A DNA stretch of 64,000 bases from Candidatus Doudnabacteria bacterium (GTDB taxonomy: Bacteria; Patescibacteriota; Doudnabacteria; UBA920). Location: the NCBI GenBank assembly GCA_003151625.1, contig PLYC01000010.1:133515-197514 (forward strand), written 5' to 3'. A program made the position numbers and the translations under genes. The notes beneath the pieces are model-generated. The model worked only from the letters and a program-made list of their open reading frames with translations, had not been told where the DNA came from and did not search any database. Of this stretch, positions 8,201 to 38,443 are shown piece by piece. Every line of letters begins with the position of its first letter. Within the stretch, counting starts at the first letter, position 1.

Positions 8201-8271
8201 ATATTTATTTATTAATGTTTACTTCTAAATAATATACGAACGTTCACCGAGTGTCAAATGCCCATAAACAT

Positions 8272-8285
8272 TGTACATTTGTACA
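8272..8285. promoter_or_regulatory. Candidate LexA operator TGTACATTTGTACA (GTAC-N4-GTAC palindrome) upstream of lexA
   Basis: Perfect palindrome in the lexA 5' region. A second palindrome GAACGTTC lies at 8239-8246. Confidence 0.45.
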
Positions 8286-8408
8286 CCTGAATTGAGTTAT
8301 CCACAGCACCTAGCGATTTGCCCTTAGCATTTAGCCAAACAAAAACCAGCACTTTACTCGTGCTGGCTAACTGCTAAACGCTAATTGCTAAATACTAACT
8401 ACTAAAGC

Positions 8409-9304: not shown

Positions 9305-9406
9305 AAATGGGGTGCTACATAATTATGTCAATTTTTTAAATTTTACTTAATTTTGCTCAATTCATTTTATTATACCATATCTATGGAGATTATCCCAGGG
9401 CAAATT

Positions 9407-9434
9407 TTGAATTTGGGTATAAATGTGGTATAAT
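9407..9434 (+). promoter_or_regulatory. Sigma70-type promoter (TTGAAT-16-TGgTATAAT)
   Basis: -35 TTGAAT at 9407-9412 and extended -10 TGGTATAAT at 9426-9434, upstream of the structured leader and the 9614 gene. Confidence 0.55.
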
Positions 9435-9447
9435 CAGATTAAAGATT

Positions 9448-9532
9448 TTCCGCCAGCCTAGGCTGGCGGATCCGCCTCCCTTCGAGGGTCTGAGGACCAC
9501 TCAGGGTCTCGAACGACCGGCGGAAAGTACAG
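9448..9532 (+). ncRNA. Candidate structured leader or small RNA
   Basis: GC-rich multi-hairpin segment in an AT-rich spacer: CCGCCAGCC-TAG-GCTGGCGG, CCCTTCGAGGG, CTGAG-GACCA-CTCAG, GGTC-TCGAAC-GACC. Sits directly downstream of a strong promoter. Confidence 0.3.
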
Positions 9533-9613
9533 AAAGATCAAAGTTAAGGATAAAAAAGCATTTTTACTCGGTTTTAATCTTAAATCCTTAATCCTAAATC
9601 TGTTAACTGACTT

Positions 9614-19673: not shown

Positions 19674-19909
19674 TTAGTAAATAATTTATAAAGCATTGGC
19701 GTCGCTCGTCTCGGCTTCGCCGAGCCGAAGTCGGACCAAGCAGCCCGTCTCGGCCGAGGCTATCCGAATTAGCCGAGCCGAGGTCGGATAAGGCAGGGGC
19801 CTTTGAAGCCCCCATTCGTAGGTTCGAATCCTACCGCCCCAGCCAACAACTCTCTCATAATACCGGAGACCGAAGAGTATCAGCGTTTCAAGAGACAGTC
19901 AATGATTTT

Positions 19910-21918: not shown

Positions 21919-22914
21919 ATGAACAAAATATATCCGGAAAAATTAAAAGTTGGAGATGAAGTTAGAATTATAGCGCCTTCAAGATCGCTCGGCATTATCT
22001 CAAATAATTTAAGAGAGATAGCCAACCGCCGATTTAGGGATTTAGGGCTTAAAGTCAGTTTTGGCAAGCATGTTGAAGAAAAAGACGAGCTTGATTCTTC
22101 CGGTATAGAATCTCGCATTGAGGACTTGCATGAAGCGTTTGCCGACAAAAACATCAAAGCAATTTTTACCGTCATTGGCGGGTATAATTCCAACCAGTTG
22201 TTGAAGCATATTGATTGGCAATTGATAAAAAATAACCCAAAAATACTTTGTGGCTATTCTGATATTACAATCTTAAATAATGCTATTTACGCCAAGACCG
22301 GATTGATAAGCTACTACGGCCCGCATTATTCCACTTTCGGGCAGGAAAAGCACTTTGACTATACTTTGGATTACTGTAAAAAATGTTTGTTTTCTGACGA
22401 ACCGTTTGAAATTAAACCCAGCGAAAATTGGAGTGATGATTTTTGGTTTAAAGATCAAAACAACCGCACCTTCATTCCTAACGAAGGGTGGTTGGCAGTA
22501 AACGAAGGCGAAGCTGAGGGAACTATCCTCGGAGGTAATCTTTGCACTTTTAATTTGATACAAGGCACGGAATTTTTTCCAGATTTGAACGACAGTATTT
22601 TATGTTTGGAAGACGATGATTTACCAAAAGAAAATTCCGCTGTGGAATTTGACCGCAATCTGCAATCCTTAATTCAGCAACCAAATTTTGAAAAAGTCCA
22701 AGGTTTGGTCATTGGCAGATTCCAAAAAGGCAGCCAAATTACGAACGAAAAGATAAAACAAATTATAAAATCAAAAAAAGAGCTGGCTAATATGCCCATA
22801 ATTGCCAATGTCGATTTTGGCCACACCGATCCCAAAATAACCCTTCCAATTGGCGGAGAAATTCAGATTAAAGCGCATTTTCAGAATTCCCAAATAAACA
22901 TAACTAAACATTAA
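21919..22914 (+). CDS. LD-carboxypeptidase (peptidase S66; LdcA/MccF-like)
   Basis: VRIIAPSRSL, ILCGYSDITILNNAIY (Ser nucleophile) and a C-terminal His/Glu region. Confidence 0.8.
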   Translation: MNKIYPEKLKVGDEVRIIAPSRSLGIISNNLREIANRRFRDLGLKVSFGKHVEEKDELDSSGIESRIEDLHEAFADKNIKAIFTVIGGYNSNQLLKHIDWQLIKNNPKILCGYSDITILNNAIYAKTGLISYYGPHYSTFGQEKHFDYTLDYCKKCLFSDEPFEIKPSENWSDDFWFKDQNNRTFIPNEGWLAVNEGEAEGTILGGNLCTFNLIQGTEFFPDLNDSILCLEDDDLPKENSAVEFDRNLQSLIQQPNFEKVQGLVIGRFQKGSQITNEKIKQIIKSKKELANMPIIANVDFGHTDPKITLPIGGEIQIKAHFQNSQINITKH

Positions 22915-23055
22915 AGTTACCATTCAAGCAAAAAAATAAGGGCATGGACAAAAAATCCAAGCTCTTTTTTATCTAATGTTATTCCAAGTCTTTAAAATAT
23001 AGGACAATAGGGGTCGACGAGAGCCGGCCCCTATTTGGTTTGAGCGCCATTGCGC

Positions 23056-23508
23056 TCAGTTGATGGTGACGGGACGCAGCTCGAGGGGTTCCTGTTCGTA
23101 GGGAACGAAGAACGCTTTGGATCCCGCCACAGCTACGCCCTTTCCGGAAGTCCCGTCCGCCAAGGCGAGACCGATGTTGCAGCGGCAGCCTAATCCTGGA
23201 GTGGTGATGAGTTCGTGATACTGCTGAAAGGCCTCGCTCCACCTCTCCAGGACGATATGGTGACCGTGGTCGTCAGTGTAGACATTGACACCCTCTTCGT
23301 GCAGGAGGCGGAGAACGGCGTTCTCCACAACCTTGCCCGAGAAGGGCTTGTCCGCATTGATTACCAGGTGAAACAGGCGGCCGGTCATCCGGGCGCCGTT
23401 CATGATGATGGTTTCTGGGTTGCCGACAACGAACTTCGTATCCGGTTGGCCGGATCGTAAATGCATTGCCAGCGTTTCCGCAATCTGCCCTTGACGTTCT
23501 GTGAACAT
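23056..23508 (-). CDS. Hypothetical 150-aa protein of the high-GC island
   Basis: High-GC codon usage continuous with the island. No confident family; motifs VVGNPE and TDDHGHH noted. Confidence 0.45.
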   Translation of the reverse strand: MFTERQGQIAETLAMHLRSGQPDTKFVVGNPETIIMNGARMTGRLFHLVINADKPFSGKVVENAVLRLLHEEGVNVYTDDHGHHIVLERWSEAFQQYHELITTPGLGCRCNIGLALADGTSGKGVAVAGSKAFFVPYEQEPLELRPVTIN

Positions 23509-23544
23509 ACACGCTCCTTGGTTGGTTGTCGGTAACTTTCGGTA

Positions 23545-23754
23545 TTAGGCCGAGTGAACGCAGGTGCCGTCGGAATTGTAGGCATAAACTTCAATGCCGA
23601 CGCCGCGGTTGGTGTGAGCGATGTCATCGATCTCCCGTTGGCTTAACGGTGCGTTGTAGTCGCCAATAAAGAAATCTTCGCCATGCTCGTGCCCGATGAA
23701 ACGGATCTTACCATCCGGAGCCTTGGGCTCCGTATCTGACTTTCGGAATAGCAT
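23545..23754 (-). CDS. Hypothetical 69-aa protein of the high-GC island
   Basis: ORF upstream of the 150-aa gene in the same transcription unit. An AT-rich promoter spacer precedes it. Confidence 0.35.
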   Translation of the reverse strand: MLFRKSDTEPKAPDGKIRFIGHEHGEDFFIGDYNAPLSQREIDDIAHTNRGVGIEVYAYNSDGTCVHSA

Positions 23755-23904
23755 GATTCCTCCCCCTTTGCAAATTTATATCGCACGTTTCAAAACATAT
23801 TTATAAACTCTGTGAACCGTAAAATAATGAAAATACTACTTACTGAGAAAATGATCTTGGTTTGAAATAATTATATACCTATTCAATAAATAAAAACAAC
23901 CTGA

Positions 23905-23945
23905 AAAAATCAACCCGGCGCGTCCTCCTTTGCGCCGGGCGTGGT
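23905..23945 (-). terminator. Terminator after HisRS-like paralog 1 (CCCGGCGC-loop-GCGCCGGG + T-run on the minus strand)
   Basis: Seen directly. Confidence 0.6.
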
Positions 23946-23959
23946 TGAAGAACAACAAC

Positions 23960-25285
23960 TTAAACCTCCTGGAGCACCTGCCCCAGGGCATTCCGGACAT
24001 CGGCCTCGAAAGCGGAGCGGCATTCGAGGGCGTGGGTGAGGGTGGCTTCTTTGCCGCTGACGCAGACCACCAACTGGCATCCGCGGAGTTTGGCCTGTTC
24101 TACCGCTCCCGCGGAGGAAAGCGGGTCGTAGCTCAGGTCAACGTTGATGCCAGCATTGCGAAGCTGCTGGGCGAATCGGAAAGCCATGGCTGTACTGTCG
24201 TTATTGCCGCAGTACGCTACCAGGACTTTATCCGGAAGGACAAGCTCGGATTTGAGCATGTCCAATTCCTTCATGACTGCAAGGATGCGGTCGAGGCCGA
24301 AGGCCATGCCGACCGCCGGTTCAGGCGGAGCGCCGAAAGCGCCCACCAGATTGTCGAATCGGCCACCGCCGAGTACCGCGCCGATTGGCACGCCGGGAAT
24401 CACTCCTTCCAGAATGAAACCGGTGTAATAGTCGGCGCCGCGAGCCAACGTAAGGTCGATTCTGACGTGAGATAGCACTTCGTCGGGCAGATAAGAGAAA
24501 ATCTCCCGGAGCTCAGCGATGCCGGTTAATCCGGCCGGCTGGTCGTGAAGATTGTCTTGAAGGTGTTGAAGCATGTCTTCGAGCGAGCCGGAAATAGCGA
24601 TGACGCCCATAATGCTTTCTATCAGGGCGCTGCCAACCCGGCGGCGTTTCAGGTCTTCGCGAATCCCTTCCAGGCCTGCCTTGGTCACCTTGTCGGCGTA
24701 ATCCATAGCGCGTTGCACCTTGAGGATGCCGTCTTTGCCGGTGATACCGGCGCGGGCAGCAATGGCCTGGATGATCATGCGATGATTGACGCGGATGACG
24801 AACTGCCGGAAACCGAGGTCGCAAAGGCCGCGGTATGCTACGGAGATAATATCAGCGTCAGCCAGAAGGCTGGAAGCGCCAATGATGTCCCCATCGCATT
24901 GCATAAACTCGCGGAAGTGCCCCTTGTCCGGTTTGTCATCGCGAAACACATAGCCGAACTGATACCGCTTGTAGGGGCGGGGCAGGTCGGGGTGCATGCT
25001 GGCTACGCGAGCCAGCGGTACCGTTAGGTCGTAGCGGAGAACGAGACGGTGTTTCTTGTTGTCTCCCAGGCGGAAGATGAGCTTCTCGCCCTCGCCGTGG
25101 TGGCCGTCAAATACGACCTCGTTCTCGATGGTGGGGGTATCGTGGGGAGTGAAACCGCTCTTCTCGTAGACAGAACGGAGAATACGGATAACGTAATCAC
25201 GCACCCGCATTCCAAGCCCCAGCTTGTCAGTAGTGCCCGGAGGGACGGCGTTCTTAAGCCGAGACCGGGTCTGTGGATGACCCAT
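23960..25285 (-). CDS. Divergent class-II HisRS-like paralog 1 (full length with anticodon-binding-like domain)
   Basis: Altered motif 2 RDDKPDKGHFREFMQCDGDIIG, histidine-binding ARGADYYTG, motif 3 LGGGRFDNL and a C-terminal alpha/beta ABD-like region. Confidence 0.8.
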   Translation of the reverse strand: MGHPQTRSRLKNAVPPGTTDKLGLGMRVRDYVIRILRSVYEKSGFTPHDTPTIENEVVFDGHHGEGEKLIFRLGDNKKHRLVLRYDLTVPLARVASMHPDLPRPYKRYQFGYVFRDDKPDKGHFREFMQCDGDIIGASSLLADADIISVAYRGLCDLGFRQFVIRVNHRMIIQAIAARAGITGKDGILKVQRAMDYADKVTKAGLEGIREDLKRRRVGSALIESIMGVIAISGSLEDMLQHLQDNLHDQPAGLTGIAELREIFSYLPDEVLSHVRIDLTLARGADYYTGFILEGVIPGVPIGAVLGGGRFDNLVGAFGAPPEPAVGMAFGLDRILAVMKELDMLKSELVLPDKVLVAYCGNNDSTAMAFRFAQQLRNAGINVDLSYDPLSSAGAVEQAKLRGCQLVVCVSGKEATLTHALECRSAFEADVRNALGQVLQEV

Positions 25286-26621
25286 TGTTTGCGCTCTCCT
25301 TGGCGCGGATGAGGCTAATAGCCTCTTTGGTGCTCACGTTGCTGGTTTGTCCTGTGGACATATCCTTGAGGGAAACATAGCCGCCGGCGACTTCGTCGTC
25401 GCCGATCACGATGATGAAAGGAATTCCCAGCCGGCTGGCGTAGGTTACCTTTTTTTTCAGCTTGGCATCATCGAAGTATACGGCCGTAGGTATGCCGCCT
25501 TCGCGCAACTCGGTAGCTGCCTGCAAAGGAACGCGGAGATCGGAAGTTTGCGGAATGACCAGCACTATAGCGGGCGTTGCGGATTTGGGAGTAATGATGC
25601 CCGCTTCGCGAAGCTGGTAAAACAGCCTGGTCAGGCCAATGGAAATTCCGACGCCGGGCAACTGTTTGTTGGTATAGTACCCAGCCAGGTCGTCGTAACG
25701 TCCGCCCGAACAGACACTGCCGATGCCGGGGTAGTCATTCAGCACCGTTTCGTACACGGTGCCCGTGTAATAGTCGAGGCCGCGGGCGATTGTCAGGTCA
25801 ATAGCGTAATTCTGCCCGGGAACCCCAAGCGCCGAGACGTAGGAAATTACCTTCTCCAATTCGTCGACGCCGGTATGGAAAGTGCCGTTGCTGATCTGCA
25901 TCTGCTTGAGCTGGGAGAGGATGGCGGCCGTGTCGCCTGTCAATCCGATGAACGCAAGAACTTCGCGCGCCGCATTGGGTGGCGCTCCTAGACCGGCCAA
26001 CTCCTGCTGAACTGCTTCCTGCCCGGCTTTCTCCAGCCTGTCGACCGAACGGAGGATGTCCGCGGCCTGGCTGGCAAGTCCGAGCGATTCGAAGAAGCCG
26101 TTCAGAATCTTGCGATTGTTGATTTTGATGGTGAAGCGGGAAAAGCCGAGCGCCGTAAAGGTTGCGTAGATGACGCTGGGAATTTCCGCGTCGTTTAGCA
26201 AACTCAAAGCGCCGTCGCCGATGATGTCGATGTCGCACTGGTAGAATTCCCGGAAACGGCCTCTCTGCGGCCGCTCTCCGCGGAACACTTTTCCGATGTG
26301 GTAGCGCCGGAAAGGAAACGCGAGGTCCGGATAGTGCTGCGCTACATAGCGGGCCAACGGAACCGTGAGATCAAACCTCAAGGCCAAATCGCTGTCGCCC
26401 TTGGTGAAGCGGTAAATCTGCTTTTCGGTCTCACCGCCCGCCTTGGCCAAAAGCACTTCGGCCAATTCGATGACGGGGGTATCTAGCGGAATGAACCCGA
26501 ACCGTTCATAGCTTTTCTGGATTACTCCCAACATGCCGTTGAACAGCATTTGGTCTGCCGGGAGCAGTTCCATAAAGCCGGAAAGGATCCGGGGGGTGAC
26601 TTTACTTGGATTGTTGTTCAT
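25254..26621 (-). CDS. Class-II HisRS-like paralog 2 (more canonical)
   Basis: Motif 2 FRGERPQRGRFREFYQCDIDIIG, ARGLDYYTG, CSGGRYDDL and ABD region AIVLVIP...IPFIIVIGDDE. Its 3' end overlaps paralog 1 by 32 nt. Confidence 0.8.
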   Translation of the reverse strand: MNNNPSKVTPRILSGFMELLPADQMLFNGMLGVIQKSYERFGFIPLDTPVIELAEVLLAKAGGETEKQIYRFTKGDSDLALRFDLTVPLARYVAQHYPDLAFPFRRYHIGKVFRGERPQRGRFREFYQCDIDIIGDGALSLLNDAEIPSVIYATFTALGFSRFTIKINNRKILNGFFESLGLASQAADILRSVDRLEKAGQEAVQQELAGLGAPPNAAREVLAFIGLTGDTAAILSQLKQMQISNGTFHTGVDELEKVISYVSALGVPGQNYAIDLTIARGLDYYTGTVYETVLNDYPGIGSVCSGGRYDDLAGYYTNKQLPGVGISIGLTRLFYQLREAGIITPKSATPAIVLVIPQTSDLRVPLQAATELREGGIPTAVYFDDAKLKKKVTYASRLGIPFIIVIGDDEVAGGYVSLKDMSTGQTSNVSTKEAISLIRAKESANNGSSTDPVSA

Positions 26622-26875
26622 AATATTTGATCAATCCTCCTGCATGGTACAAACTACGGAATGACTGGCTCCATAATTCTGCCAATCGATGGTAAAGAAC
26701 AAACAAGCTCATCCTTATTGCACGGATAAACTTATCGTATTACTATAAATCAATTTAGCTTATATTGTCAAGGAGATTGGGTTTGGCCAGAGAAGCCCCT
26801 GACAAAATTTTTTAACTTGATTTTATTGGATAAATAATATATATAAAAGTCGAGTGAACTGTAAAAAAAGATATC

Positions 26876-26920
26876 CGGGCAGCTCCTAAGAGGAACTGCC
26901 CGGAAGATAAAACCTTTGCC
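26876..26920 (-). terminator. Terminator after the MIO-lyase gene (CCGGGCAG...CTGCCCGG + T7 on the minus strand)
   Basis: Seen directly. Confidence 0.6.
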
Positions 26921-26933
26921 AAACGGCTCGGGT

Positions 26934-28589
26934 CTAAGTGGTCAACGCGTTGCAGGCTGACTGCATCAGACTTCCGTCTGCCAGCATGCCCTCGACTGCG
27001 TCCAACTCGGCCTTGAGATACCGGTCATCAAACCAGGTCTGGTGGCCTTTTGCCGTTTCCTTCTGGAATACGCCGCGGATGTGGCCGTAAGCCTCGCTCG
27101 TTCCGAGCCCGAGCTGCTGGAGGTTTTCCGGCAGCAAATGCTGAGTGAGGGTGATCCCTTGCGACGCCATGAACAGTTCGGCGGCAAGCACGCGACGGAT
27201 GATCGGCAGCATGGAGCGAACTTTGAGAGCGCTGTTCATTCCCATGCTCACCCAGTCTTCCTGGTCTGCCGAGGTCGTGATCGAATGAGTCGAGCAGGGA
27301 TTGGCCAGAAGCGCAATCTGATTCACCAAGGAGGCAACCCCATATTGCACGATCATCAGGCCGGTATTGGCCGTATTGGGACCGGCAAGATCCGCAGGCA
27401 AACCGTAGCTTAACCTGGGAGTAGTCAGAGCGAAACCTCGCCGGTCACTGGCGCCGGCAAGCGGCGTCAGGGCTATTGCGAGGTAATCCAGCGGCGCCGC
27501 CAAAGGCTGACCGTGAAAATTGCCGCCTGAAATGGCTATGTATTGCGCGCCGTTCTCATCATCCTCGAACACCAGAGGATTGTCGGTTGCCGAGTTGAGT
27601 TCGACTTCGAGAATCGATTCCAGATGAGAAAGTGCTTGGTATGCCGCCGCATGAATCTGGGGCGCACAGCGGAACGAGTAAGCGTCCTGAACGCGGGGAA
27701 CCTGCTTGCCGTGGCTAAACTTCTTCTGTTCGTCCGGAAAGGCTACGGATCTGGCTTCTTCCGTAATTCTCCTGGATCCTTCGGTAAACTTCCTGATGCG
27801 CGCCGCGGAATGAACCTGACCGGGTAATGGCCTGGCTTCATGGATGCGGGCATCGAAAGCGTTCTGTTCTCCGCGAATAGCCTCTAAAGACAAGGCCGTA
27901 GCGAGGTCGGCGGTTTCCAAGAGAATCCAGCCGTCCACTACCGCAAGACACGCAATTGCCGCAATGAAGTTGGCGCCGTTTGTCAGTGCCATGGCTTCTT
28001 TGGCCGCAAGCGTGAGGGGTTTGAGGCCGTGGTTTTCAAGAACTGTTCTGGCCGGTTGAATTTCGCCCGCCACGAACATTTGACCTTCCTCAAGGCCGAT
28101 TATGCCCGCGGACATGTGAGCCAAGGGAATTAAATCTCCCGAGGCGCCCACCGATCCGAACTCAGGGACTACCGGGGTAAGCCCCAAATTCAGGCAATCG
28201 CGGAGCCTTTCAATCAGGCAAGGTCGCACGCCGGAGTGACCCTTCAAAAAGTTGTTCAGCCGAACAAGCATGGCTGCTCGGGTGACTTCGGGTGAAAGCG
28301 GGTTCCCATAGCCGCAGCAATGGGCCGGGATATAACGCATCTGGTAATCGGACAGTTCGTCCGACGGCAACACTTGGTTCTTGCGGGAGCCACAGCCGGT
28401 ATTGACACCGTACATGATGTCTCCACGGATAGCGGCGGCTTCGAGTCCTTGACGGAAACGTTCGATTTTCGCAAACGTCTCGGGGTTGATCTGAACCTCG
28501 TGATGATGTCTGGCCACGGCTATAACCTGTTCAGTGGTTAAGCTGTGACCGTCTACCTCCACGATTCTCTGCGTAAGCATAGATTTCAC
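26934..28589 (-). CDS. MIO-dependent aromatic amino-acid ammonia-lyase/aminomutase family protein (HAL/PAL-like)
   Basis: Ala-Ser-Gly MIO triad in GSVGASGDLIPLAHM, plus YGVNTGCG and a selectivity-region A-H (IPAHCCGYG) resembling the HAL S-H. 551 aa. Confidence 0.85.
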   Translation of the reverse strand: MKSMLTQRIVEVDGHSLTTEQVIAVARHHHEVQINPETFAKIERFRQGLEAAAIRGDIMYGVNTGCGSRKNQVLPSDELSDYQMRYIPAHCCGYGNPLSPEVTRAAMLVRLNNFLKGHSGVRPCLIERLRDCLNLGLTPVVPEFGSVGASGDLIPLAHMSAGIIGLEEGQMFVAGEIQPARTVLENHGLKPLTLAAKEAMALTNGANFIAAIACLAVVDGWILLETADLATALSLEAIRGEQNAFDARIHEARPLPGQVHSAARIRKFTEGSRRITEEARSVAFPDEQKKFSHGKQVPRVQDAYSFRCAPQIHAAAYQALSHLESILEVELNSATDNPLVFEDDENGAQYIAISGGNFHGQPLAAPLDYLAIALTPLAGASDRRGFALTTPRLSYGLPADLAGPNTANTGLMIVQYGVASLVNQIALLANPCSTHSITTSADQEDWVSMGMNSALKVRSMLPIIRRVLAAELFMASQGITLTQHLLPENLQQLGLGTSEAYGHIRGVFQKETAKGHQTWFDDRYLKAELDAVEGMLADGSLMQSACNALTT

Positions 28590-28774
28590 TCCTAAACCGA
28601 GATTTCAACTGTACTGAGACTTAGAACAGACAACCCAAAAATAGGTGCGTTGATGTTATTTTTCCTCCAAATTCAAGGCAAAACAAACAACTCAACCCTT
28701 TGAGCGGTCTGGTCTGTGCTATATGCATATACCTTTTAACACCCTTCTGTCAAGGGCTTAAATAAAAGAGTTTT

Positions 28775-29374
28775 TTATCTACGCTTACCGACTTCGTCCG
28801 TAATATTTTTAAAAGAGATATCTTTTTCTGCCAGTAAAACGAACAGGTGGTAAATTAAATCCACAGTTTCCTCAATTAATCTGGGTTTGGTTTGTTTTTG
28901 CGCTGCGTGTACAACTTCGAGTGCTTCCTCGGCCACTTTTAGGGAAATTTTGTCCAAACCAGCTTTGAATAAAGAGGCTGTATAGGATTTTTTTGGCATC
29001 TTTAATTTTCGCTCCTGGATTACGCTGAACAACTCCAATAATTTGTTGGGGTCAAAATTTTCTTTAAAACAGGAATAAGCACCCGTATGGCACGTCGGAC
29101 CTACCGGTTTGGCTTTAATTAGTATTGCGTCGTTATCACAGTCTAACTTTATATCAACAAGGTTTAAGATGTTCTTGCTGGTTTCGCCTTTCATCCAGAG
29201 CCGCTGTTTGCTTCGGCTATAAAACCAAACTTTTTTTGTCTTTAAAGTTTTGGCGAAAGATTCCTTATTCATATAACCCAGCATCAAAACAGCGGACGTG
29301 TCGGCATCTTGAATGACGGCCGGTACCAGACCTTGACTTTTTGTCCAATTTATTTTTTTGATTAAATTTTTCAT
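28775..29374 (-). CDS. hisIE: Bifunctional phosphoribosyl-AMP cyclohydrolase / phosphoribosyl-ATP pyrophosphatase
   Basis: N-terminal HisI ([18 protein letters not shown]) and C-terminal HisE helices. Confidence 0.85.
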
Positions 29375-30855
29375 AAGCGTATTGGTATGTTATTAGTTGA
29401 TAAATAATTTTTAACCTGGCTGACGCTAAATTGTCCATAATGGAACAAACTTGCTACCAATGCCGCGTCTGCCTTGCCCTCGGTAAAAGCCAATTTTAAA
29501 TCTTCCAAAGATCCGGCGCCGCCTGATGCGATAACAGGGATTTTTACCGCTTCCGAAACTTTTTTCAAAAGCTCTAAATCATAACCTGATTTTGTGCCGT
29601 CCTTATCCATAGAGGTCAATAAAATTTCTCCCGCTCCTCTTTTTTCAGCTTCTTTGGCCCAGTCGATTGCGTTTAATGAAGTTTCATCGCGGCCGCCCTT
29701 TAGAAATACTTTATATACGCCATCCTTCTTTTTTGCGTCAATTGCTACCACCACGCATTGCCGGCCAAAAGCAAGCGCTGCTTCGGAAATAAATTCGGGG
29801 TTAAGCACGGCCGTGGTATTAATGGAAATTTTGTCAGCGCCTAATTGCAATAATTTGCGAATATCATCAACGGTCTTAATTCCGCCCCCAACGGTGAAAG
29901 GTATAAAGACCTCTTTGGCCACCTGGGCTACCATGTCAAATAACGTCTGCCGATTCTCATGCGACGCGGTAATGTCAAGAAAGACCAGCTCGTCAGCGCC
30001 TTCTTCAGAATACCTGCGACCCAAGGCTACCGGGTCGCCCGCATCCCTCAGGTTTACAAAAGATACGCCCTTAACCACCCTGCCGTCTTTAACGTCCAAG
30101 CAGGGAATAATTCGTTTGGTTAAGTTTGATACAGGTGTTTGAAAATTTAAAGCCTCAGCCAACGTTAGCCTATTTTCATACAAAGCTTTGCCCAAAATGG
30201 CGCCAAAGGCACCCAATGTATTTATTTTTTTCAGAGATTTTAAATCGGAAATTCCTCCGGACGCTATAACATTAAACCCCAAATTTATCAGTTCTTTTAA
30301 AACTATAAAATTTGGCTCGGTTAGGCTGCCGTCTTTTTCCACGTCCGTAAACAAGATTTCGGTTATCCCAAGGGTTTTAAGTTCTTTGGCAAAATCCAAA
30401 TAATTTTTATCAACGGTTTCCTGCCACCCTTTTATCGCAATTTTGCCTTTTTTAATTTCCAGCGCTACTACTATTCGCTTGCTGCCGAACTCTTTAATTA
30501 AAGATGATAATAGGCCAAAATCCGTTAATGCTTTGGTGCCTAAAACAGCACGCCGCACGCCGGAATTTAAATATTTTTGCGCGGTACTTATATCGCGGAT
30601 CCCTCCGCCGACTTCTATGGGAATTTTGACAGCCTTACAAATTTTGGTAATCAGTTCCTGGTTGACCGGCACTCCTGTTTTAGCCGCATCCAAATCAATA
30701 ATATGAAGCATGGCCGCCCCTTGCCGCTCAAAGTCTTGGGCCACGCCTAAAGGATCGGAAGAATAAATTTTTTTCGTGGAAAATTCTCCCTTAGTTAACC
30801 TTACACATTTGCCGTCAATAATGTCTATCGCGGGAATAATTAACATAAATCGCAA
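29371..30855 (-). CDS. hisAF: Fused HisA-HisF protein (ProFAR isomerase + IGP synthase cyclase subunit)
   Basis: The first ~240 aa are HisA-like ([27 protein letters not shown]). The last ~250 aa are HisF-like ([44 protein letters not shown]). Continuous 494-aa ORF. Confidence 0.85.
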
Positions 30856-31430
30856 AAGTTAGATAATAATTTCATTCCCCATTGTCCGGATTTTTCCGGA
30901 TGGAATTGAGTAGCGTAAAAGTTATCTTTCTGTGCGATGGCCGCAAAATCAACATCATAAGCGGTTTGACCGATAACGTATTTTAAGTCCGTTGCCAAAT
31001 AATACGAGTGCACAAAGTAAAAGAAACTACCTGTCGGAATTTCTGTCGTAAGCTTGGATTCTTTAATTAGCTCAACTTTATTCCAGCCCATATGCGGGAC
31101 TTTTAAGTCTGTTTGGAATCTTACTACCCGGCCGGGAATTATAGATAAACATTCGGTGTTATCTTCTTCCGAAAATTCCGCCATCAACTGCATGCCTAGA
31201 CATATCCCTAAAGTAGGAACTTTAAGTTTAGGTAAAACTTTGGCAAAGCCGCTTCCTATTAGTTTCTCCATAGCGCTTCCCGCCGCGCCAACCCCGGGCA
31301 AAATAACCTTATCAAAAGCAGCCAAGCTTTCCGGTTTGTTTACAATCTCAAAAGACTTGCCAAGCGAAGTTAACGCGTTGGCTACGCTTTGTAAGTTACT
31401 CGCGCCATAATCTATAATCGCGATTTTCAT
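30840..31430 (-). CDS. hisH: Imidazole glycerol phosphate synthase glutaminase subunit
   Basis: [22 protein letters not shown] (catalytic Cys) and VHSYY. Confidence 0.9.
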
Positions 31431-32489
31431 TTATAATGACCCTTTCGTGGAAGGCAGTATATCCTTTTGCCGGAAGTCCTTATCAACCGCCATACGCAAA
31501 GCCTTGGCAAAAGCTTTGAAGATTGCCTCTATTTTGTGATGTTCATTCCGGCTATATTTAACATTAATGTGAATATTGGCCTTCATTGTTTCGGCAACTG
31601 AACGGAAAAAGTGTTCTACCATTTCCGTTGGCAGGTCTCCGACCTTCTCTCTTTTAAAATCACAGTTAAACACTAAATACGGTCTGCCGCCCAAGTCTAT
31701 CGCAACCTCCACAAGCGTATCGTCCATTGGCAATAAGAATCCATAACGTTTTATGCCTTTTCTTTCGCCCAATGCCTGTAATAGAGTCTGCCCCAATGTT
31801 AGCCCCACATCTTCTATTGTGTGGTGGTCATCTATCTGTAAATCGCCCTTGGCTTTAATTGTTAAATCAATCAGCGAGTGTTTGGAAAGCTGTTCCAGCA
31901 TGTGGTTGAAAAAATTGATTCCCGTATCAACGCTAAAATTCCCTTGTCCATCCAGATTGCACAAAATAAAAACTTCGGTTTCTTTTGTGCCGCGCTCCAA
32001 GCTTGCGATTCTCGGAAATATTGAATTGGTTTGCATGCCAAAAAACTTCACTCCGATATTTTTGGCAAATCCCGCATCGCTTTCCCTGTCTCCGACCATA
32101 AAAGATTTTTCAAAGTCTATAAGTTCTTTTTGCAAGAAACTTTTCAATAATCCGGCTTTCGGCTTCCTGCAATTGCATTTATCTTTAGCAAAATGAGGGC
32201 AGGTAAATATTCCGTAAAATTCTACCCCTTCCTTTTTTAGCAGTTTCAAAAAAGCATTTTGTACTATTTCAAAATCTTTTTTTGGAAAGGACATTGTACC
32301 CAGGCCGTCCTGATTGGAAACCATAACCAGTTTATAGTTTTGATTTGTCAGATTCTGTAGAACTAAAATTACCCCAGGCAAAATTTTAAGTTTGTCCAGG
32401 CTGTCTACCTGCTCGGTAACCGGCGGTTCAATAATTAGTGTGCCGTCCCTGTCCAAAAAGGCAATTTTTAACAGTTGTCCGGAATTCAT
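31431..32489 (-). CDS. hisB: Bifunctional histidinol-phosphatase / imidazoleglycerol-phosphate dehydratase
   Basis: N-terminal HAD motif FLDRDGTL. C-terminal IGPD motifs (DDHHTIED, RNEHHKIEA). Confidence 0.9.
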   Translation of the reverse strand: MNSGQLLKIAFLDRDGTLIIEPPVTEQVDSLDKLKILPGVILVLQNLTNQNYKLVMVSNQDGLGTMSFPKKDFEIVQNAFLKLLKKEGVEFYGIFTCPHFAKDKCNCRKPKAGLLKSFLQKELIDFEKSFMVGDRESDAGFAKNIGVKFFGMQTNSIFPRIASLERGTKETEVFILCNLDGQGNFSVDTGINFFNHMLEQLSKHSLIDLTIKAKGDLQIDDHHTIEDVGLTLGQTLLQALGERKGIKRYGFLLPMDDTLVEVAIDLGGRPYLVFNCDFKREKVGDLPTEMVEHFFRSVAETMKANIHINVKYSRNEHHKIEAIFKAFAKALRMAVDKDFRQKDILPSTKGSL

Positions 32490-33526
32490 ATAATTGATGA
32501 TAAATTTTTAATTAATAATTGATTTTGCTCCGGTGTGCCAATGGAAATCCTAATGCAGTTTTCGAGTTTGGGTTTGGAATTAAAATCTCTTACGATAATT
32601 CCAAAATCTTCGGCTAATTTTTTCGCTATCAGCGATGCGTTAGGATAACGAACCAGTAAAAAATTGGCTTCGCTGGGAAAAACTTTAAATCCTAATTTAG
32701 TTAATTCCAAAGCCAATTTTTCTCTTTCCCTGAGTATTAAGGTTTTAAATTCCAACATCTTTGGGTATTGCTGCAAGGCCTGTATAGCTATCTTGCTGGA
32801 AACACGGTTTAAATTATATGGCGGCTTAATTTTGTTTAAATATTCAATAGGAGCCTCCTGCGCTACGGCATAACCTACCCGAATACCGGCTAATCCCCAG
32901 GCTTTGGAAAAAGTTCTAAGTATAATCAAATTTTCCAAACTTGATATTTTGCCGATTAAAGACGGCTTTGAAGCAAACTCAACGTAAGCCTCATCAACCA
33001 CTACAATGCCGCGGAAATTGCCGCAAATCTTTTCCAATTCTTCCGGCTTAATTAAAGTTCCGGTAGGGTTGTTTGGGGAGCAACAAAAAATAATCTTTGT
33101 TTTGCTGTTTATTTGGGAAAGCAGGTTTGGAACATCCACTTGGAAATCTGAAGTCAAAGAAATATTTTTTACTGCCACCCCGGCAACTTCGGCCGCAACT
33201 TTGTACATCCCGTATGTGGGTTCCATTATTATAATTTCTTCGTCTGGCTCTACAAAAAGACGAATAAGCAAATCTATGGCCTCGTCCGAACCGTTACCCA
33301 CAAAAATGTTTTTTTCCGAAATTCCCAAAAATTTTCCCAATGCTTTGCGCAAATCAAGGGAGTAGGGATCGGGATAACGGTTAAGTTCGTTGTCGATTGA
33401 TTCGTTAATGACACTGCCAAGCGAGTTTTCGTTGGCGTCCATAAAGACGCCTTTTTGATAAAGGCTGCGGGCCGAACTATAAGGTTTAAAGCCTCTTAAA
33501 TTGGAACGTATTAAATCGGTAATCAT
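32486..33526 (-). CDS. hisC: Histidinol-phosphate aminotransferase
   Basis: Class-II aminotransferase with GSDEAIDLL and the PLP-Lys region TFSKAWGLAGIRVGY. Confidence 0.9.
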   Translation of the reverse strand: MITDLIRSNLRGFKPYSSARSLYQKGVFMDANENSLGSVINESIDNELNRYPDPYSLDLRKALGKFLGISEKNIFVGNGSDEAIDLLIRLFVEPDEEIIIMEPTYGMYKVAAEVAGVAVKNISLTSDFQVDVPNLLSQINSKTKIIFCCSPNNPTGTLIKPEELEKICGNFRGIVVVDEAYVEFASKPSLIGKISSLENLIILRTFSKAWGLAGIRVGYAVAQEAPIEYLNKIKPPYNLNRVSSKIAIQALQQYPKMLEFKTLILREREKLALELTKLGFKVFPSEANFLLVRYPNASLIAKKLAEDFGIIVRDFNSKPKLENCIRISIGTPEQNQLLIKNLSSII

Positions 33527-34818
33527 AAATTTTTCTTGAATCTTATACTTACGGCATTTTTGTGGGCATCAAGGCCTTCTTTTGCAGCCAGGACTTCAAC
33601 CGTGGTTCTTAAATTTTTAATTCCTTCTTTGGTGACTTGTTGAATTTGCATTTTCTTTCCAAAAGATTCTACGGAAAGCGCCGAGAACATTTTAGCATAA
33701 CCGGAGGTAGGCAAGGTGTGATTACTGCCTGTGGCGTAATCTCCCAAAGGCTCGCTGGAATAATTTCCCAAAAATACCGAACCCGCGTTGTTTATTCTTT
33801 TCAGTATGGCATTCTCGTTCTTACAAACTATTTCCAAGTGCTCGGGAGCATAATCGTTAATTAAATCACAAGCTTCCGTTATGGTTTTTGTGATAATAAT
33901 AAAGCTGTTTTTTAAAGACTGCCGCACAATCTGCAACCGGAAAAGTTGCTCGGCCTGTTTTAAAACTTGATCGTAAACCTGTTTTGCCAAAGTTTCGGAT
34001 AAAGTAACCAAAATCGCCTGAGAGTCTTCGCCGTGTTCTAACTGCGAAAGCAGATCCGCGGCAATCCAATCCGGGTCAGCGCTTTCGTCCGCTAAGGCTA
34101 AAACCTCGGAAGGGCCAGCCGGCATATCTATATCCACCTCTCCATATACCATCATTTTTGCAGTGGTAACGTATTGATTCCCGGGACCAAAAATTTTTGA
34201 TACTTTAGGTATGGACTCTGTACCGTAAGCCATGGCCGCAACAGCCTGTGCCCCGCCTACTTTAAAAATTTTTGATATACCGCACAAATCAGCTGCTATC
34301 AGTACCGCGCTTGGAACCTTTCCTTCTTTGTTCGGAGGCACGCAAAGCACAATTTCTTTACAACCGGCAATTTTTGCGGGAATGGCTAACATTAAAACCG
34401 TGGAAGGATAAGCCGCCTTTCCGCCGGGAATATAAAGGCCAACCTTTTCAATCGGGCGAAATTCCCGCCAGATTTGGACGCCTTTGGCGGTTGTGACTTT
34501 TTGTTCCTTAATTTGCACGTTGCTTTTGTGAAATTTTTCAATGTTAGTTTTAGCTACTTTTAGCGCCTTAACCAATTCCTTACTTTCTTGTTTATAAGCC
34601 GTAGCTATTTCTTGTTTAGAGACCGCTAGGACTTTTAAATCCGCCCCTTCAAATTTTTTAGTAAAAGCAAAAAGCGCTTTGTCTTTATTTTTTCGGACAT
34701 CGCCAATTATTTTACTTACTACCGCCTCTACATTTGTTTTTTTGCTTTGCCTTTCCCGGATCAAATTCAGTATAGTTTGAAAGGAATATTGCTTTGTAGA
34801 TATAATTTTCATAAACAT
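33523..34818 (-). CDS. hisD: Histidinol dehydrogenase
   Basis: Typical HisD length and motifs ([22 protein letters not shown]). Confidence 0.9.
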
Positions 34819-35438
34819 TAATTAATACCGCACTTGGATAAGAATTTTGCTTTGGCCTGCTTATTAATCGGGCTTTCGATTAATACGGCTTGGGATTCTA
34901 ATATCGTGAATAACGGCACCAAATTATGCGCTTTTAAAGTAGTGCCGGTTTGCACTATATCGCAAATAGCGTCTGCCAGGTTCAAATCTGGCGTTATTTC
35001 CACGGAACCGGAAATGGGAATTATGGCCGCCTCAAGCTTCTCTTTTTTTAAATAGTCGGTAAGCAGTTTTGGATAGGAAGTGGCGATTCTTTCTCCTTCC
35101 AAATCCTTGGAGGTTTTTATAACGGAGTCTGCCGGAGCCGCTATCATCAGCCTGCATTTGCCAAAATCAAACTTTTTTAATATTTTCGGTTCAAATTCTT
35201 TTTCCGCGAGGACATTTTGTCCCACAATGCCAAAATCCGCCACGCCCCGGCTCACGTATTCCGGAATATCATCGTCCCTAAGATATAATACATCAAGGTC
35301 AAAATTTTGACAGGGCAGAATTAGCGAATGCCCGTTTGGAGCAAAAGTCAGCCCGCAAGAAACAAGGAAGTCCATACTGCCCTGATTCAGCCGGCCGCTT
35401 TTTTGAACGGCAATTCTTAGTCTTTCCGGAGTTTTCAT
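34818..35438 (-). CDS. hisG: ATP phosphoribosyltransferase, short form
   Basis: 206 aa short HisG (LRIAVQKSGRL). Overlaps the upstream HisRS gene by ATGA. Confidence 0.9.
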   Translation of the reverse strand: MKTPERLRIAVQKSGRLNQGSMDFLVSCGLTFAPNGHSLILPCQNFDLDVLYLRDDDIPEYVSRGVADFGIVGQNVLAEKEFEPKILKKFDFGKCRLMIAAPADSVIKTSKDLEGERIATSYPKLLTDYLKKEKLEAAIIPISGSVEITPDLNLADAICDIVQTGTTLKAHNLVPLFTILESQAVLIESPINKQAKAKFLSKCGIN

Positions 35439-36727
35439 AATGAGCTATATCCTTTAAAGTAATTAATAATCTGGTCCTGCGGTATAGTTTTTTGCTTGCC
35501 GGTCTTCATCATTTTAATGGTTACCTCGCCGCGTTCCTTTTCGTCCGATCCGCACATAACAACAAAAGGTATGCTTTTTTTGTCCGCGTATTTTAATTGT
35601 TTCGCAATTTTGGCCGGTTCAAAATAAATTTCCGCTTTTAACCCAGCCGTCTGTATATCACCCAAAATTTTAAGTGAATCCGGCAAGGTGTCCGCGTCAA
35701 AATATGCTACTAATGCCTGCGAATTTAAGCTTATTTCGTCAAGCAGTTTAAGTTGTTCCATCGCTACAATAATACGGTCAAATCCAAAGGCAACGCCCAC
35801 CCCGCTGAATTTTTCAGGGCAAAAAAGTGAGCACAGGTCGTCATACCTGCCTCCGGCGCAAACGGCTCCAATGTCCACTTCCGGTATGTAAACTTCAAAA
35901 ATAACGCCGGTATAATAATCCAGACCCCGCGCCAGACTGGGATCAAAAACCAAAACTTCATCCGGAATTCCAAACCCCTTTGCAATTTTTAAAAACTCCT
36001 GGATTTCAGTAATGTTATATTTTTGAAATAAGTTTAATCTTTCGTTTGAACTGCCTTCTACGCACACTAATTCCAATAATTTTGAAACCTCGGAGTCAGA
36101 AGCTAAAGACTTAAGCTCCTGTTTGATTTCGGCAGGGCTTAACTTATCCATTTTATCCAATATCCTAATCATCCCTGCCTGATTCTCGGCCGGGATTTTT
36201 AGGTCGTTCAAAATACTGTTAATCAATCTGCGGCTGTTAAATTTAATTTTAAACTTGGAAAAGCCCAAGGTAGTAAAAACTTCGGCCATTACTTTGGCGA
36301 TTTCGGCTTCAGCCACCAGGCTCTGTGTGCCGATAATATCTATGTCGCACTGGTAAAATTCCCTATATCTGCCTTTTGCCGGCCTGTCAGCCCGCCAAAC
36401 TCTTCCAATCTGGTACCGCTTAAAAGGCATTGGTAAAGTTTTGTAGTTGGCGGCCACCACTCTGGCAAAGGGGACGGTTTGATCATAACGCAGGCAAATA
36501 TCTCTGTCGCCATTATCCTTAAAACGGTAAACTAGTTTGGATCCCTCTTCGCCATACTTGCCTAATATTGTTTCCGCGTATTCAATTGCCGGAGTTTCGA
36601 TGGCATCGTAGCCAAACTTTGTAAACACAGTTTTAATTTTTTCCAAAACATAATCTCTCTTTGCCATTTGTTCGGGCAAAAAGTCCCTTGTTCCCTGTAA
36701 TATTTTTGGTTCAATAAATTGGTTCAT
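35435..36727 (-). CDS. hisS: Histidyl-tRNA synthetase (catalytically intact), translationally coupled to short hisG; possible dual HisS/HisZ role
   Basis: Motif 2 WRADRPAKGRYREFYQCDIDIIG, ARGLDYYTG, motif 3 GGRYDDL and a complete anticodon-binding domain. Confidence 0.85.
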   Translation of the reverse strand: MNQFIEPKILQGTRDFLPEQMAKRDYVLEKIKTVFTKFGYDAIETPAIEYAETILGKYGEEGSKLVYRFKDNGDRDICLRYDQTVPFARVVAANYKTLPMPFKRYQIGRVWRADRPAKGRYREFYQCDIDIIGTQSLVAEAEIAKVMAEVFTTLGFSKFKIKFNSRRLINSILNDLKIPAENQAGMIRILDKMDKLSPAEIKQELKSLASDSEVSKLLELVCVEGSSNERLNLFQKYNITEIQEFLKIAKGFGIPDEVLVFDPSLARGLDYYTGVIFEVYIPEVDIGAVCAGGRYDDLCSLFCPEKFSGVGVAFGFDRIIVAMEQLKLLDEISLNSQALVAYFDADTLPDSLKILGDIQTAGLKAEIYFEPAKIAKQLKYADKKSIPFVVMCGSDEKERGEVTIKMMKTGKQKTIPQDQIINYFKGYSSL

Positions 36728-36785: not shown

Positions 36786-37085
36786 TTAATTCGTCTTAAC
36801 GCCGAGACGTTTAAGCACCAAACCATACCCACCCATGCCATGATGCAGCCAGTGGGCAACACGAGTGATAGTAGCGGTGCTGGAACCGGTTTGTTTGCAA
36901 ATTTCTCTATAAGATTCCTGATTGGAAACTTTCTTGGCTACCTGAAAACGTTCTGCCATAGCTTCAAGCTCGGCAATCGTGCATAAATCTCTAAAGAATT
37001 GTTTGCATTCTTTGGTATTTTTGAGTTTAAGAATACCTAAAAACAACTCCTCAAATTCTTTGGTATTTAACAACTTGTCTTCCAT
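36786..37085 (-). CDS. TrpR-like YerC/YecD-family protein
   Basis: FFRDLCTIAELEAMAERFQVAK and TGSSTATITRV match the YerC/YecD family. Confidence 0.7.
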   Translation of the reverse strand: MEDKLLNTKEFEELFLGILKLKNTKECKQFFRDLCTIAELEAMAERFQVAKKVSNQESYREICKQTGSSTATITRVAHWLHHGMGGYGLVLKRLGVKTN

Positions 37086-37220
37086 AAATATAACTGTTTT
37101 AACGTGTTAATACACTAACACGATTATATTAGCAGGGTGCTAAAAATTTGTCAATAGTTTATCGGCTGTCATTGGCTGGCTCTTAGGACTGGCCCTGAAA
37201 CAATTTAGGAACCGGCGGTA

Positions 37221-38071: not shown

Positions 38072-38443
38072 ATGAGCAGAAAACAAGCATTCACCAGCGA
38101 CCAAATCAGACAACTGTCCAAGAACCCCAACATCTCCCGTTGCGGCAGCAATACGGTCCGTTACAGCAGGGCGTTCAAGCAAGAGGCCATGAGGCAGTAC
38201 GAGGCAGGATTATCCGCAGTGGAGATATTCCAAAATGCCGGAATTGATTTGGATACCATCGGCAAGTACGCCCCCAACCACTTAATGCACCAATGGCGGG
38301 CATCACTTCGGGCCAAGTCCGGAGAAAAGGTCGATCCCTTAACAAGGCCAAACAACAACCTGGAAATGCTGAAGGCCCAGGTGGCCTACCTGAAGGCGGA
38401 AAACGATTTTTTAGCCAAGCTCCGGGCACGGAAAAGAAAATAG
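38072..38443 (+). CDS. IS3-family transposase OrfA (HTH + leucine zipper)
   Basis: LEMLKAQVAYLKAENDFLAKL zipper. Ends in the A-rich frameshift window CGGAAAAGAAAATAG. Confidence 0.85.
   Translation: MSRKQAFTSDQIRQLSKNPNISRCGSNTVRYSRAFKQEAMRQYEAGLSAVEIFQNAGIDLDTIGKYAPNHLMHQWRASLRAKSGEKVDPLTRPNNNLEMLKAQVAYLKAENDFLAKLRARKRK

Follow-up and report, generated by a model that had tools for sequence, protein, structure and literature searches.

A histidine ammonia-lyase-like enzyme of Candidatus Doudnabacteria belongs to a putative sister clade of HutH whose genes adjoin hisS and tRNA-His

A 64,000-nucleotide stretch of DNA from Candidatus Doudnabacteria bacterium (assembly GCA_003151625.1, contig PLYC01000010.1; the whole stretch is called the window below), a member of the candidate phyla radiation (CPR, or Patescibacteria), encodes an enzyme resembling histidine ammonia-lyase (HAL), one of the lyases and aminomutases that depend on the 4-methylideneimidazole-5-one (MIO) group. 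Judged by its sequence, this HAL-like protein appears to represent a separate, previously undescribed sister clade of HutH, the HAL of histidine utilization (hut) pathways. Across the family, the genes that recur beside it are those of histidine decoding, namely hisS, encoding histidyl-tRNA synthetase (HisRS), and the tRNA-His gene. The enzyme probably deaminates free L-histidine, or a very close imidazole amino acid, to trans-urocanate and ammonium, in a role tied to the histidine pool for tRNA charging and not to Hut catabolism; we put the probability of this reading at roughly 0.55. What the enzyme acts on, which way its reaction runs and what purpose it serves in the cell we infer from sequence and genomic context.

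The HAL-like gene and its predicted active site

The only long open reading frame (ORF) in the interval to which the initial annotation assigned the gene, 26934-28589, lies on the minus strand. The GTG at 28589 stands three codons upstream of a likely ATG start at 28580 (codon 4 of the frame), a ribosome-binding site (RBS), AGGAG, is found 8 nt 5' of that ATG, and a database protein 98 % identical to the product (P0001) is likewise 548 residues long; the coding sequence is therefore 26934-28580, so that the annotated interval was real while its start, and with it a length of 551 residues, was not. The ratio of nonsynonymous to synonymous substitution (dN/dS) is 0.14 and 0.11 against the orthologs in two other metagenome-assembled genomes (MAGs; loci L006 and L008, loci being numbered in this way throughout), which indicates a functional gene under purifying selection. 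In the window the gene appears to be monocistronic, with its own putative promoter and its own terminator:

26934-28580, minus strand: coding sequence of the HAL-like MIO enzyme, 548 residues; Pfam PF00221, 537.4 bits
28748-28753, minus strand: possible -35 box TTGACA of the gene's own promoter, just past the hisIE stop codon; read from the sequence and not called by the promoter scan, with a weak -10 box
26874-26904, minus strand: intrinsic terminator with a 14-bp stem and a T-run, 30 nt past the stop codon

The Pfam family Lyase_aromatic (PF00221) matches the protein with E = 3.6e-161, far above its gathering threshold of 27.3 bits, over residues 17-505, corresponding to profile positions 1-465 of 466 and so to the full length of the model; on sequence grounds the protein is thus a member of the MIO-dependent lyase/aminomutase superfamily. 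Its top matches among the NCBIfam models are those for HutH, yet both cut-offs are missed: 472.5 bits against 539.15 for the equivalog TIGR01225, and 488.4 against 524 for the subfamily NF006871. Five other family members score similarly on the curated HutH models (about 420-492 bits) as compared with 665-698 for five canonical HutH proteins; on TIGR01225 taken singly the ranges are 420-472 for the family and 665-685 for canonical HutH. Models for phenylalanine and tyrosine ammonia-lyases (PAL and TAL) score far lower than the HutH models, and those for aminomutases also fall short of their cut-offs (335.1 against 501 for the tyrosine 2,3-aminomutase model TIGR03832; 290.8 against 800 and 182 against 1250 for the phenylalanine aminomutase models TIGR04475 and TIGR04473). 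Likewise, as the initial annotation had remarked, no hutU, hutI or hutG stands beside the gene: candidates for urocanase, imidazolonepropionase and formiminoglutamase were absent from the larger ORFs of the window. Failing both the curated score and the hut context, the protein is not a HutH equivalog.

In a neighbor-joining distance tree rooted on the tyrosine 2,3-aminomutase (TAM) of Streptomyces globisporus (SgTAM, or SgcC4; PDB 2OHY) as outgroup, the HAL-like proteins group together (64 % bootstrap), separately from a group of canonical HutH with Trypanosoma cruzi HAL (63 %), and the protein of the window falls inside a CPR subclade with 99 % support.

The catalytic residues, whose coordinates were checked by translation of the window, form an intact set:

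28137-28145, minus strand: MIO-forming triad Ala146-Ser147-Gly148, in GSVGASGDL; invariant in 40 of 40 family members
28410-28412, minus strand: Tyr57, inner-loop catalytic Tyr, in YGVNTGCG; equivalent to Y53 of Pseudomonas putida HAL (PpHAL; PDB 1B8F) and invariant in 40 members
28320-28325, minus strand: Ala86-His87 'selectivity' dipeptide, in IPAHCC; the His, counterpart of PpHAL H83, never varies in the family, and at least 90 % of members have the Ala
27258-27260, minus strand: Glu441, in SADQEDW; corresponds to the imidazole-binding PpHAL E414, and is Gln in SgTAM
27669-27689, minus strand: QDAYSFR, with Gln298, Tyr301 and Arg304 corresponding to PpHAL Q277, Y280 and R283 (carboxylate and amine binding)
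27702-27773, minus strand: family-specific insertion, residues 270-293, RRITEEARSVAFPDEQKKFSHGKQ; missing from canonical HutH, in the same place as the longer loop of SgTAM, with a predicted local distance difference test score (pLDDT) of about 82-88

Alignment of the 40 members shows His87 and Glu441 to be invariant, as are N201, Q298, Y301, R304 and F355, the counterparts of PpHAL N195, Q277, Y280, R283 and F329, numbered and with roles as in the established literature. Retention of the carboxylate-binding Arg points to a free rather than an esterified amino acid as the substrate; retention of both histidine-specific determinants in addition speaks for free L-histidine, or an analogue very close to it.

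HutH (EC 4.3.1.3), represented by PpHAL, thus shares with the HAL-like protein its fold, its MIO triad, and its catalytic and substrate-contact residues, including the histidine-specific His and Glu. The HAL-like protein differs in being some 45 residues longer (canonical HutH proteins from the same search have 495-506 residues, the HAL-like clade about 540-555), in its sub-cut-off scores, and in insertions of 13-16 and 6 residues together with a longer C-terminus. Its second shell also departs from that of HutH at several places:

After the catalytic Tyr: YGVNTGCG in the HAL-like family, TG(V/F)G in canonical HutH
Selectivity region: A-H-C-C in the HAL-like family, S-H-(A/S/C)-(A/V) in canonical HutH
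N195 region: KEAMxLTNG in the HAL-like family, KEGxxLxNGT in canonical HutH
Near the substrate pocket: QY in the HAL-like family, QV in canonical HutH
Loop motif: SYGLPADLAG in the HAL-like family, NEELPPFLAG in canonical HutH

The initial annotation had described a protein with the ASG triad, a HAL-like A-H dipeptide and a length more like that of PAL or TAM; each of these points was borne out, and the description holds for the whole clade. The architecture, too, is PAL/TAM-like; the 13-16-residue insertion, SYGLP and QY align with SgTAM. SgTAM is similar as well in length and loop architecture, but it has Gln in place of the HAL-type Glu, and its enediyne or nonribosomal peptide synthetase (NRPS) context has no counterpart around the HAL-like gene. 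The AlphaFold2 model of the HAL-like protein (mean pLDDT 91.9, predicted template modelling score 0.92) was compared by Foldseek with structures of HAL, TAM, PAL and TAL, giving template modelling scores (TM-scores) of 0.82-0.87. T. cruzi HAL had the top E-value, whereas the query-normalised TM-score was highest for SgTAM (0.87), with SgTAM and AvPAL ranking first by that measure and covering more of the query. Fold comparison was consequently rejected as a discriminator, as these scores do not separate HAL from TAM and PAL. By sequence, the nearest solved structures are T. cruzi HAL (PDB 6V6H) and Thermoplasma acidophilum HAL (PDB 7TQR), with E = 1e-82 and 1e-85, respectively, and about 33-34 % identity; the two are nearest by Foldseek E-value as well. 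T. cruzi HAL has a partly extended loop ahead of its QDAYS motif, as the HAL-like family does, although it groups with canonical HutH; T. acidophilum HAL took no supported position in the tree. No hisS linkage is known for either.

Conserved linkage to hisS and tRNA-His

On each of the first three contigs inspected around homologs, a HisRS gene lay within a few kilobases. One genome per species (GTDB representatives) was then scanned with family-specific peptide patterns, yielding 80 loci from CPR/Patescibacteria, Bacteroidota (Chitinophagaceae, Saprospiraceae and Bacteroidales), Ignavibacteriota/Chlorobiota, Eisenbacteria, Aminicenantes, Omnitrophota, Planctomycetota and unclassified lineages. 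Linkage was counted over the 60 species-level loci flanked on each side by 2 kb or more, the counts ignoring kinship among loci. A HisRS ORF lies no more than 700 bp from the HAL-like gene in 42 of the 60 and no more than 5 kb away in 46; it is nearly always on the same strand, the stop and start codons often overlap or abut, and both gene orders occur. When neighbours within 5 kb were clustered over 76 loci, HisRS was the only strongly recurrent one (50 of 76), every other family being present at 8 loci or fewer, and hut genes (hutU, hutI, hutG or hutF) were not among the recurrent neighbours. Thus, where HutH may be found with its pathway, the HAL-like clade adjoins hisS and tRNA-His and never hutU, hutI or hutG. 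HisRS is absent from the neighbours of all three canonical HutH loci used as controls, one of which is followed directly by urocanase. The HisRS neighbourhood is therefore a trait of the family, beyond the single window on which the initial annotation was based.

The same is true of tRNA-His, which accounts for 38 of the 56 tRNA genes in 1.3 Mb of loci, always on the strand of the HAL-like gene; this is an enrichment of about 30-fold over expectation. In 31 of the 60 loci a tRNA-His gene lies within 10 kb, in 17 directly against the HisRS/HAL block, and the commonest order is tRNA-His, HisRS, HAL-like gene. That tRNA-His might serve as the attachment site of an island was considered and rejected, as the neighbours include no recurrent integrase and several arrangements of the module have the tRNA gene within it. 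A literature search found no paper on linkage of HAL, hisS and tRNA-His or on HAL in Patescibacteria.

The linked synthetases themselves appear unremarkable. RGxxYYTG is present in 47 of 47 HAL-adjacent HisRS proteins, GGRY/F in 46 of 46 and the D/E-x-T loop in 47 of 47, and those tested against the hisS model pass its equivalog cut-off; with the canonical histidine-binding and catalytic motifs kept, they look like ordinary L-histidine:tRNA ligases. HisRS ORFs of 831 residues in high-GC loci, considered as possible fusions, proved to be over-extended upstream. The initial annotation had proposed that the enzyme, making urocanate or beta-histidine, feeds the neighbouring ligase-like enzymes, and this finds no favour in the 47 canonical histidine pockets, which carry no sign of adaptation to either product.

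The pockets bear equally on a second possibility raised by the initial annotation, an MIO-dependent histidine 2,3-aminomutase making beta-histidine. The extended loop, SYGLP and QY that it has in common with SgTAM and that HutH lacks, the TM-score ranking, and the location of the gene outside a hut context would all accord with a mutase. Yet the scores on the aminomutase models are low (335 against 501 for Tyr, 291 against 800 for Phe), the HisRS pockets next door are canonical for alpha-histidine, neighbour clustering found no NRPS, polyketide synthase (PKS) or other beta-amino-acid-consuming genes near HAL-like genes, and the position of SgTAM Glu71 is Ser in the alignment. Whether such an enzyme behaves as lyase or mutase depends on inner-loop dynamics, no sequence rule separating the two, and the literature reports no genomic evidence for any histidine aminomutase (PMC9002059). 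A mutase is on balance very unlikely.

A different objection is that the linkage is without meaning, the protein being an ordinary stand-alone histidase serving nitrogen supply or pH and the adjacency to hisS mere inherited synteny. Such a view could draw on the roughly 14 of 60 loci that have no HisRS nearby, on the separate transcription of the HAL-like gene, which in the window and in loci L021, L022 and L043 forms a unit with its own predicted promoter, and on the moderate correlation of HAL and HisRS pairwise identities (Spearman 0.38), a value that also left co-phylogeny indecisive as proof of coupling. Set against these, adjacency recurs in six or more phylum-level lineages, with either gene coming first and with frequent overlap of stop and start codons; no other neighbour is conserved while tRNA-His is strongly enriched; and the three canonical HutH loci have no such linkage. 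Synteny by inheritance alone is quite unlikely.

Several loci carry further genes of the same kind. In some small-genome CPR loci two tRNA-His and two HisRS genes surround the HAL-like gene (L014, 12249-15616; L043, 8352-15870), and tRNA-His occurs in tandem in L015, L016 and L049. Second HisRS copies can be degenerate at catalytic residues, the motif 3 Arg being replaced by Thr in L014 and the motif 2 GR by TR in L043. In some CPR lineages a deacylase of the AstE/AspA type (8 loci) and a GNAT acetyltransferase (6 loci) lie between or beside the HisRS and HAL-like genes, for example at 8461-9804 in L004/L010; these neighbours hint at N-acyl-amino-acid chemistry.

The high-GC island and the his locus of the window

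In the window, the HAL-like gene lies at one end of an island of high GC content, and every gene between 23056 and 37085 is transcribed from the minus strand:

23000-28600: high-GC island, 5.7 kb, with four to five genes directly after a complete his operon
26742-26771, minus strand: near-consensus sigma-70 promoter TTGACA-18-TATAGT for the HisRS455/HisRS441 operon, found by promoter scan downstream of the HAL-like terminator
25254-26621, minus strand: HisRS455, a canonical histidine--tRNA ligase; hisS model TIGR00442, 391.6 bits against a cut-off of 286.75; HGTP_anticodon domain, 52 bits; motifs intact
23960-25285, minus strand: HisRS441, a degenerate HisRS-like paralog overlapping HisRS455 by 32 nt; GR changed to GH in motif 2 and the anticodon-binding domain truncated
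23545-23754, minus strand: unlisted small ORF of 69 residues with its own RBS and high GC; no family match
23056-23508, minus strand: ORF150, an orphan protein of 150 residues with an RBS, at the far end of the island

Coding GC in the island is 0.56-0.59 and third-position GC (GC3) 0.64-0.70, as against 0.39-0.43 in the flanking his genes, while the intergenic promoter regions are as low in GC as the host. Two independent MAGs are collinear over both island junctions (96 % and 90-93 % identity), which rejects a chimeric assembly as the cause and makes the island a real, horizontally acquired insertion. High GC is not a general property of the module, whose composition follows the host in most lineages; the clade of the window alone deviates, by +0.10-0.15, which fits a recent transfer among CPR lineages. 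At the junctions no convincing direct repeats were found, and neither a tRNA-Gln gene nor an IS3-family transposase lies at a junction, the former being 3.4 kb and the latter 9.7 kb from the island. The transposase (38293-39315, plus strand; rve integrase core and HTH_21) is about 1.2 kb past a hisR-like gene, and some 100 nt after the tRNA-Gln a partial tRNA-like Rfam match (19776-19834, plus strand; 35.5 bits, model positions 9-63), not called by ARAGORN, may be a degraded tRNA. Rfam gave no riboswitch, T-box or other known RNA element in the island. Neither ORF150 nor the 69-residue ORF has a homolog outside its own cluster among 5.8 billion sequences or a match to a family, and for ORF150 this includes Pfam and NCBIfam.

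The 5' leaders of the HAL-like and HisRS455 genes (28680-28700 and 26695-26720, minus strand) resemble each other over about 50 nt, which include AAGGGTTGAGTTGTTTGTTTTGCC in the former and AAGGATGAGCTTGTTTGTTCTTTACC in the latter. A shared regulatory motif, GAGyTTGTTTGTT, was rejected, being found only in the same or sister species, with a degenerate search uninformative. The junction between hisIE and the HAL-like gene is also variable. In L008, from a sister species, a low-GC gene resembling phosphoribosyl pyrophosphate (PRPP) synthetase (8803-9744; 313 residues, called by eye without a profile) lies between them, the window has no such gene there, and L006 has about 430 bp extra at this point; together the L008 gene and the extra sequence of L006 mark the junction as a hotspot of insertion and deletion.

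The placing of the gene beside HisRS paralogs by the initial annotation is correct inasmuch as two HisRS-like genes lie directly downstream, although only HisRS455 passes the hisS model; HisRS441 falls just under it (283.2 bits). Nor does HisRS441 reach the hisZ model (TIGR00443; 185 against 271.65) or adjoin hisG, and its ortholog nevertheless bears the NCBI name 'ATP-PRT regulatory subunit' (ATP-PRT, ATP phosphoribosyltransferase). The HisRS441 family comprises about 600 proteins of about 415-445 residues with the HisRS core only. Elsewhere its genes overlap that of a full HisRS, an M42 peptidase gene comes next, a HIT-family gene is sometimes close by, and there is no HAL-like gene in the vicinity; the following are such pairs:

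L095, 2648-6373: HisRS441-type paralog pair
L096, 2476-6390: HisRS441-type paralog pair
L088, 8001-12030: HisRS441-type paralog pair

Since the pair exists apart from the HAL-like gene, the island consists of two separable modules, the HAL-like gene on the one hand and HisRS with its HisRS-like partner on the other.

An island of this composition invites the thought that the enzyme deaminates not histidine itself but a modified histidine or a histidine analogue or antimetabolite, and so serves detoxification on a resistance-type island that also carries additional copies of HisRS. Horizontal acquisition, the presence of two additional HisRS-like genes despite a native HisRS (HisRS430, below), the duplicated tRNA-His/HisRS pairs of some CPR loci and the family-wide conservation of the second-shell changes might all be so explained, as might the S66 peptidase genes (the fold family of MccF) and HIT genes near some members. 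In most lineages, however, module GC equals host GC and the neighbouring HisRS has the appearance of the housekeeping copy; PADLOC, a search for anti-phage defence, gave no meaningful matches; the S66 and HIT neighbours do not recur; and nothing in the analysis implicates a natural antimetabolite that targets HisRS. Detoxification is accordingly improbable. The S66 gene of the window (LD-carboxypeptidase/MccF-type; 21919-22914, plus strand) flanks the island, and others lie near the HAL-like gene in L003 (13079-13978) and next to a HisRS441-type paralog in L090 (9525-10514). S66 peptidases were not recurrent in neighbour clustering, and the co-occurrence may be coincidental.

Upstream of the HAL-like gene lies a complete his operon, which the initial annotation did not mention:

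28775-36727, minus strand: low-GC his operon, HisRS430-hisG(short)-hisD-hisC-hisB-hisH-hisAF-hisIE
35435-36727, minus strand: HisRS430, 430 residues, in the hisZ position and with an anticodon-binding domain; passes hisS (404 bits), below cut-off on hisZ (215 against 271.65)
34818-35438, minus strand: short-form hisG, 206 residues, with a 4-nt overlap with the HisRS430 stop
29371-30855, minus strand: hisA-hisF fusion, 494 residues, with two His_biosynth domains
36786-37085, minus strand: regulator of the TrpR family (HisR/YerC-like) heading the his locus, with a perfect palindrome, GTGTTA-n6-TAACAC, at 37104-37121 in its own promoter

The hisB of the window is bifunctional. Short-form HisG normally needs HisZ, and HisRS430 might act as HisRS and HisZ at once or represent an intermediate between them. 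Regulation through HisR does not visibly extend to the HAL-like gene. A HisR operator upstream of it was sought and not found, the palindrome occurring only at the promoter of the regulator and other matches being at chance level. In L001, the closest foreign relative, a regulator 75 % identical to that of the window lies between the HAL-like and HisRS genes at 11791-12081. Published HisR regulons comprise biosynthesis and uptake genes, with one case of a hutH-linked paralog in Oscillibacter and no hisS-linked HAL paralog (PMC9413887). In a Lewinella MAG (L063, 2674-11605), the triad of tRNA-His, HisRS and HAL-like genes lies just upstream of hisB- and hisH-like genes and is a second, independent association of the HAL-like gene with histidine biosynthesis.

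Attenuators of the classic type, with a leader peptide containing a run of His codons, precede tRNA-His and HisRS in three HAL-like loci of Parcubacteria:

L021, about 530-620: His-run leader peptide and terminator 5' of tRNA-His, then hisS; MNKVVAHHHHHFNQ
L022, about 3830-3930: His-run leader peptide and terminator 5' of tRNA-His, then hisS; MRNQNHEIHHHHGNDQ
L043, about 8187-8290: His-run leader peptide and terminator 5' of tRNA-His, then hisS; MKKVTAIHHHHHHQ

Read from their sequences, these would be instances of peptide-leader attenuation controlling a tRNA/aminoacyl-tRNA synthetase operon in CPR bacteria.

Attenuation in response to histidine starvation is what might be expected if the enzyme ran in the opposite, anabolic direction, joining urocanate and ammonium into L-histidine as the adjacent HisRS pulled the reaction by trapping the product as His-tRNA, and so providing auxotrophic CPR and similar bacteria with histidine in one step. 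MIO lyases are chemically reversible, the neighbours are all concerned with histidine supply or charging (tRNA-His, hisS, the his operons of the window and L063, the PRPP-synthetase-like gene of L008 and the hisR-like gene of L001), and none of the neighbours is a downstream hut gene that would consume urocanate. At physiological ammonium, however, MIO lyases strongly favour elimination at equilibrium, neighbour clustering gave no recurrent urocanate transporter, the organism of the window already has a full his operon, and the HAL-like gene has its own predicted promoter in the window and in the three attenuator loci, so that induction by starvation need not extend to it. Salvage of urocanate is thus unlikely.

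A proposed role beside histidine decoding

In the mechanism that we favour, the MIO-dependent lyase would convert L-histidine to trans-urocanate and ammonium and would thereby control locally the free histidine pool on which HisRS draws, acting as a valve for overflow or homeostasis, with release of ammonium, rather than as the first step of histidine assimilation. In the window, horizontal transfer brought the HAL-like gene on the 5.7-kb island together with the HisRS and HisRS-like pair; the island landed immediately downstream of the his biosynthesis operon, where the HAL-like gene would be transcribed from its own promoter and stopped at its own terminator.

Several observations weigh against this proposal. 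A catabolic lyase beside a biosynthetic his operon, as in the window and L063, and beside charging genes is physiologically odd, and in three Parcubacteria loci the tRNA-His/HisRS unit stands behind an attenuator induced by histidine starvation. The second-shell residues deviate systematically from HutH (TGCG, AHCC, KEAM, QY and extra invariant Tyr residues), so that specificity or reaction outcome could differ from those of HutH. To these may be added the loci without a nearby HisRS and the moderate bootstraps (63-64 %) for separation of the clade. In a bolder and rather unlikely alternative, the HAL-like enzyme would be no catabolic enzyme at all but a working partner of HisRS and tRNA-His: most concretely a urocanate aminase feeding the adjacent synthetase where histidine supply is poor, or else the first MIO histidine 2,3-aminomutase, or the source of an imidazole-acrylate moiety that a degenerate HisRS paralog would use on tRNA-His.

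MIO enzymes are known from textbooks as enzymes of catabolism (HAL) or of secondary metabolism (PAL, TAL, TAM and phenylalanine aminomutase, PAM). A well-conserved sister clade of HAL whose only conserved partners are hisS and tRNA-His is a strong guilt-by-association signal linking histidine turnover to histidine decoding; it occurs in CPR bacteria, whose metabolism is minimal, and in five or more further phylum-level lineages. For genome annotation it is also a trap, since the current labels 'histidine ammonia-lyase' and 'aromatic amino acid ammonia-lyase' would misreport histidine catabolism in reconstructions of CPR metabolism. The analysis likewise exposes further oddities of the histidine system, among them degenerate HisRS proteins paired with complete ones, tRNA-His/HisRS pairs present in two copies and a full-length HisRS that occupies the position of hisZ. 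If the enzyme were indeed a working partner of HisRS, the MIO family would gain a new physiological role, and a novel type of metabolic module, coupled to an aminoacyl-tRNA synthetase, would be established. More broadly, what makes the clade interesting is not so much its chemistry as the conserved association, above all in the CPR, between an enzyme that transforms histidine and the genes that decode it.

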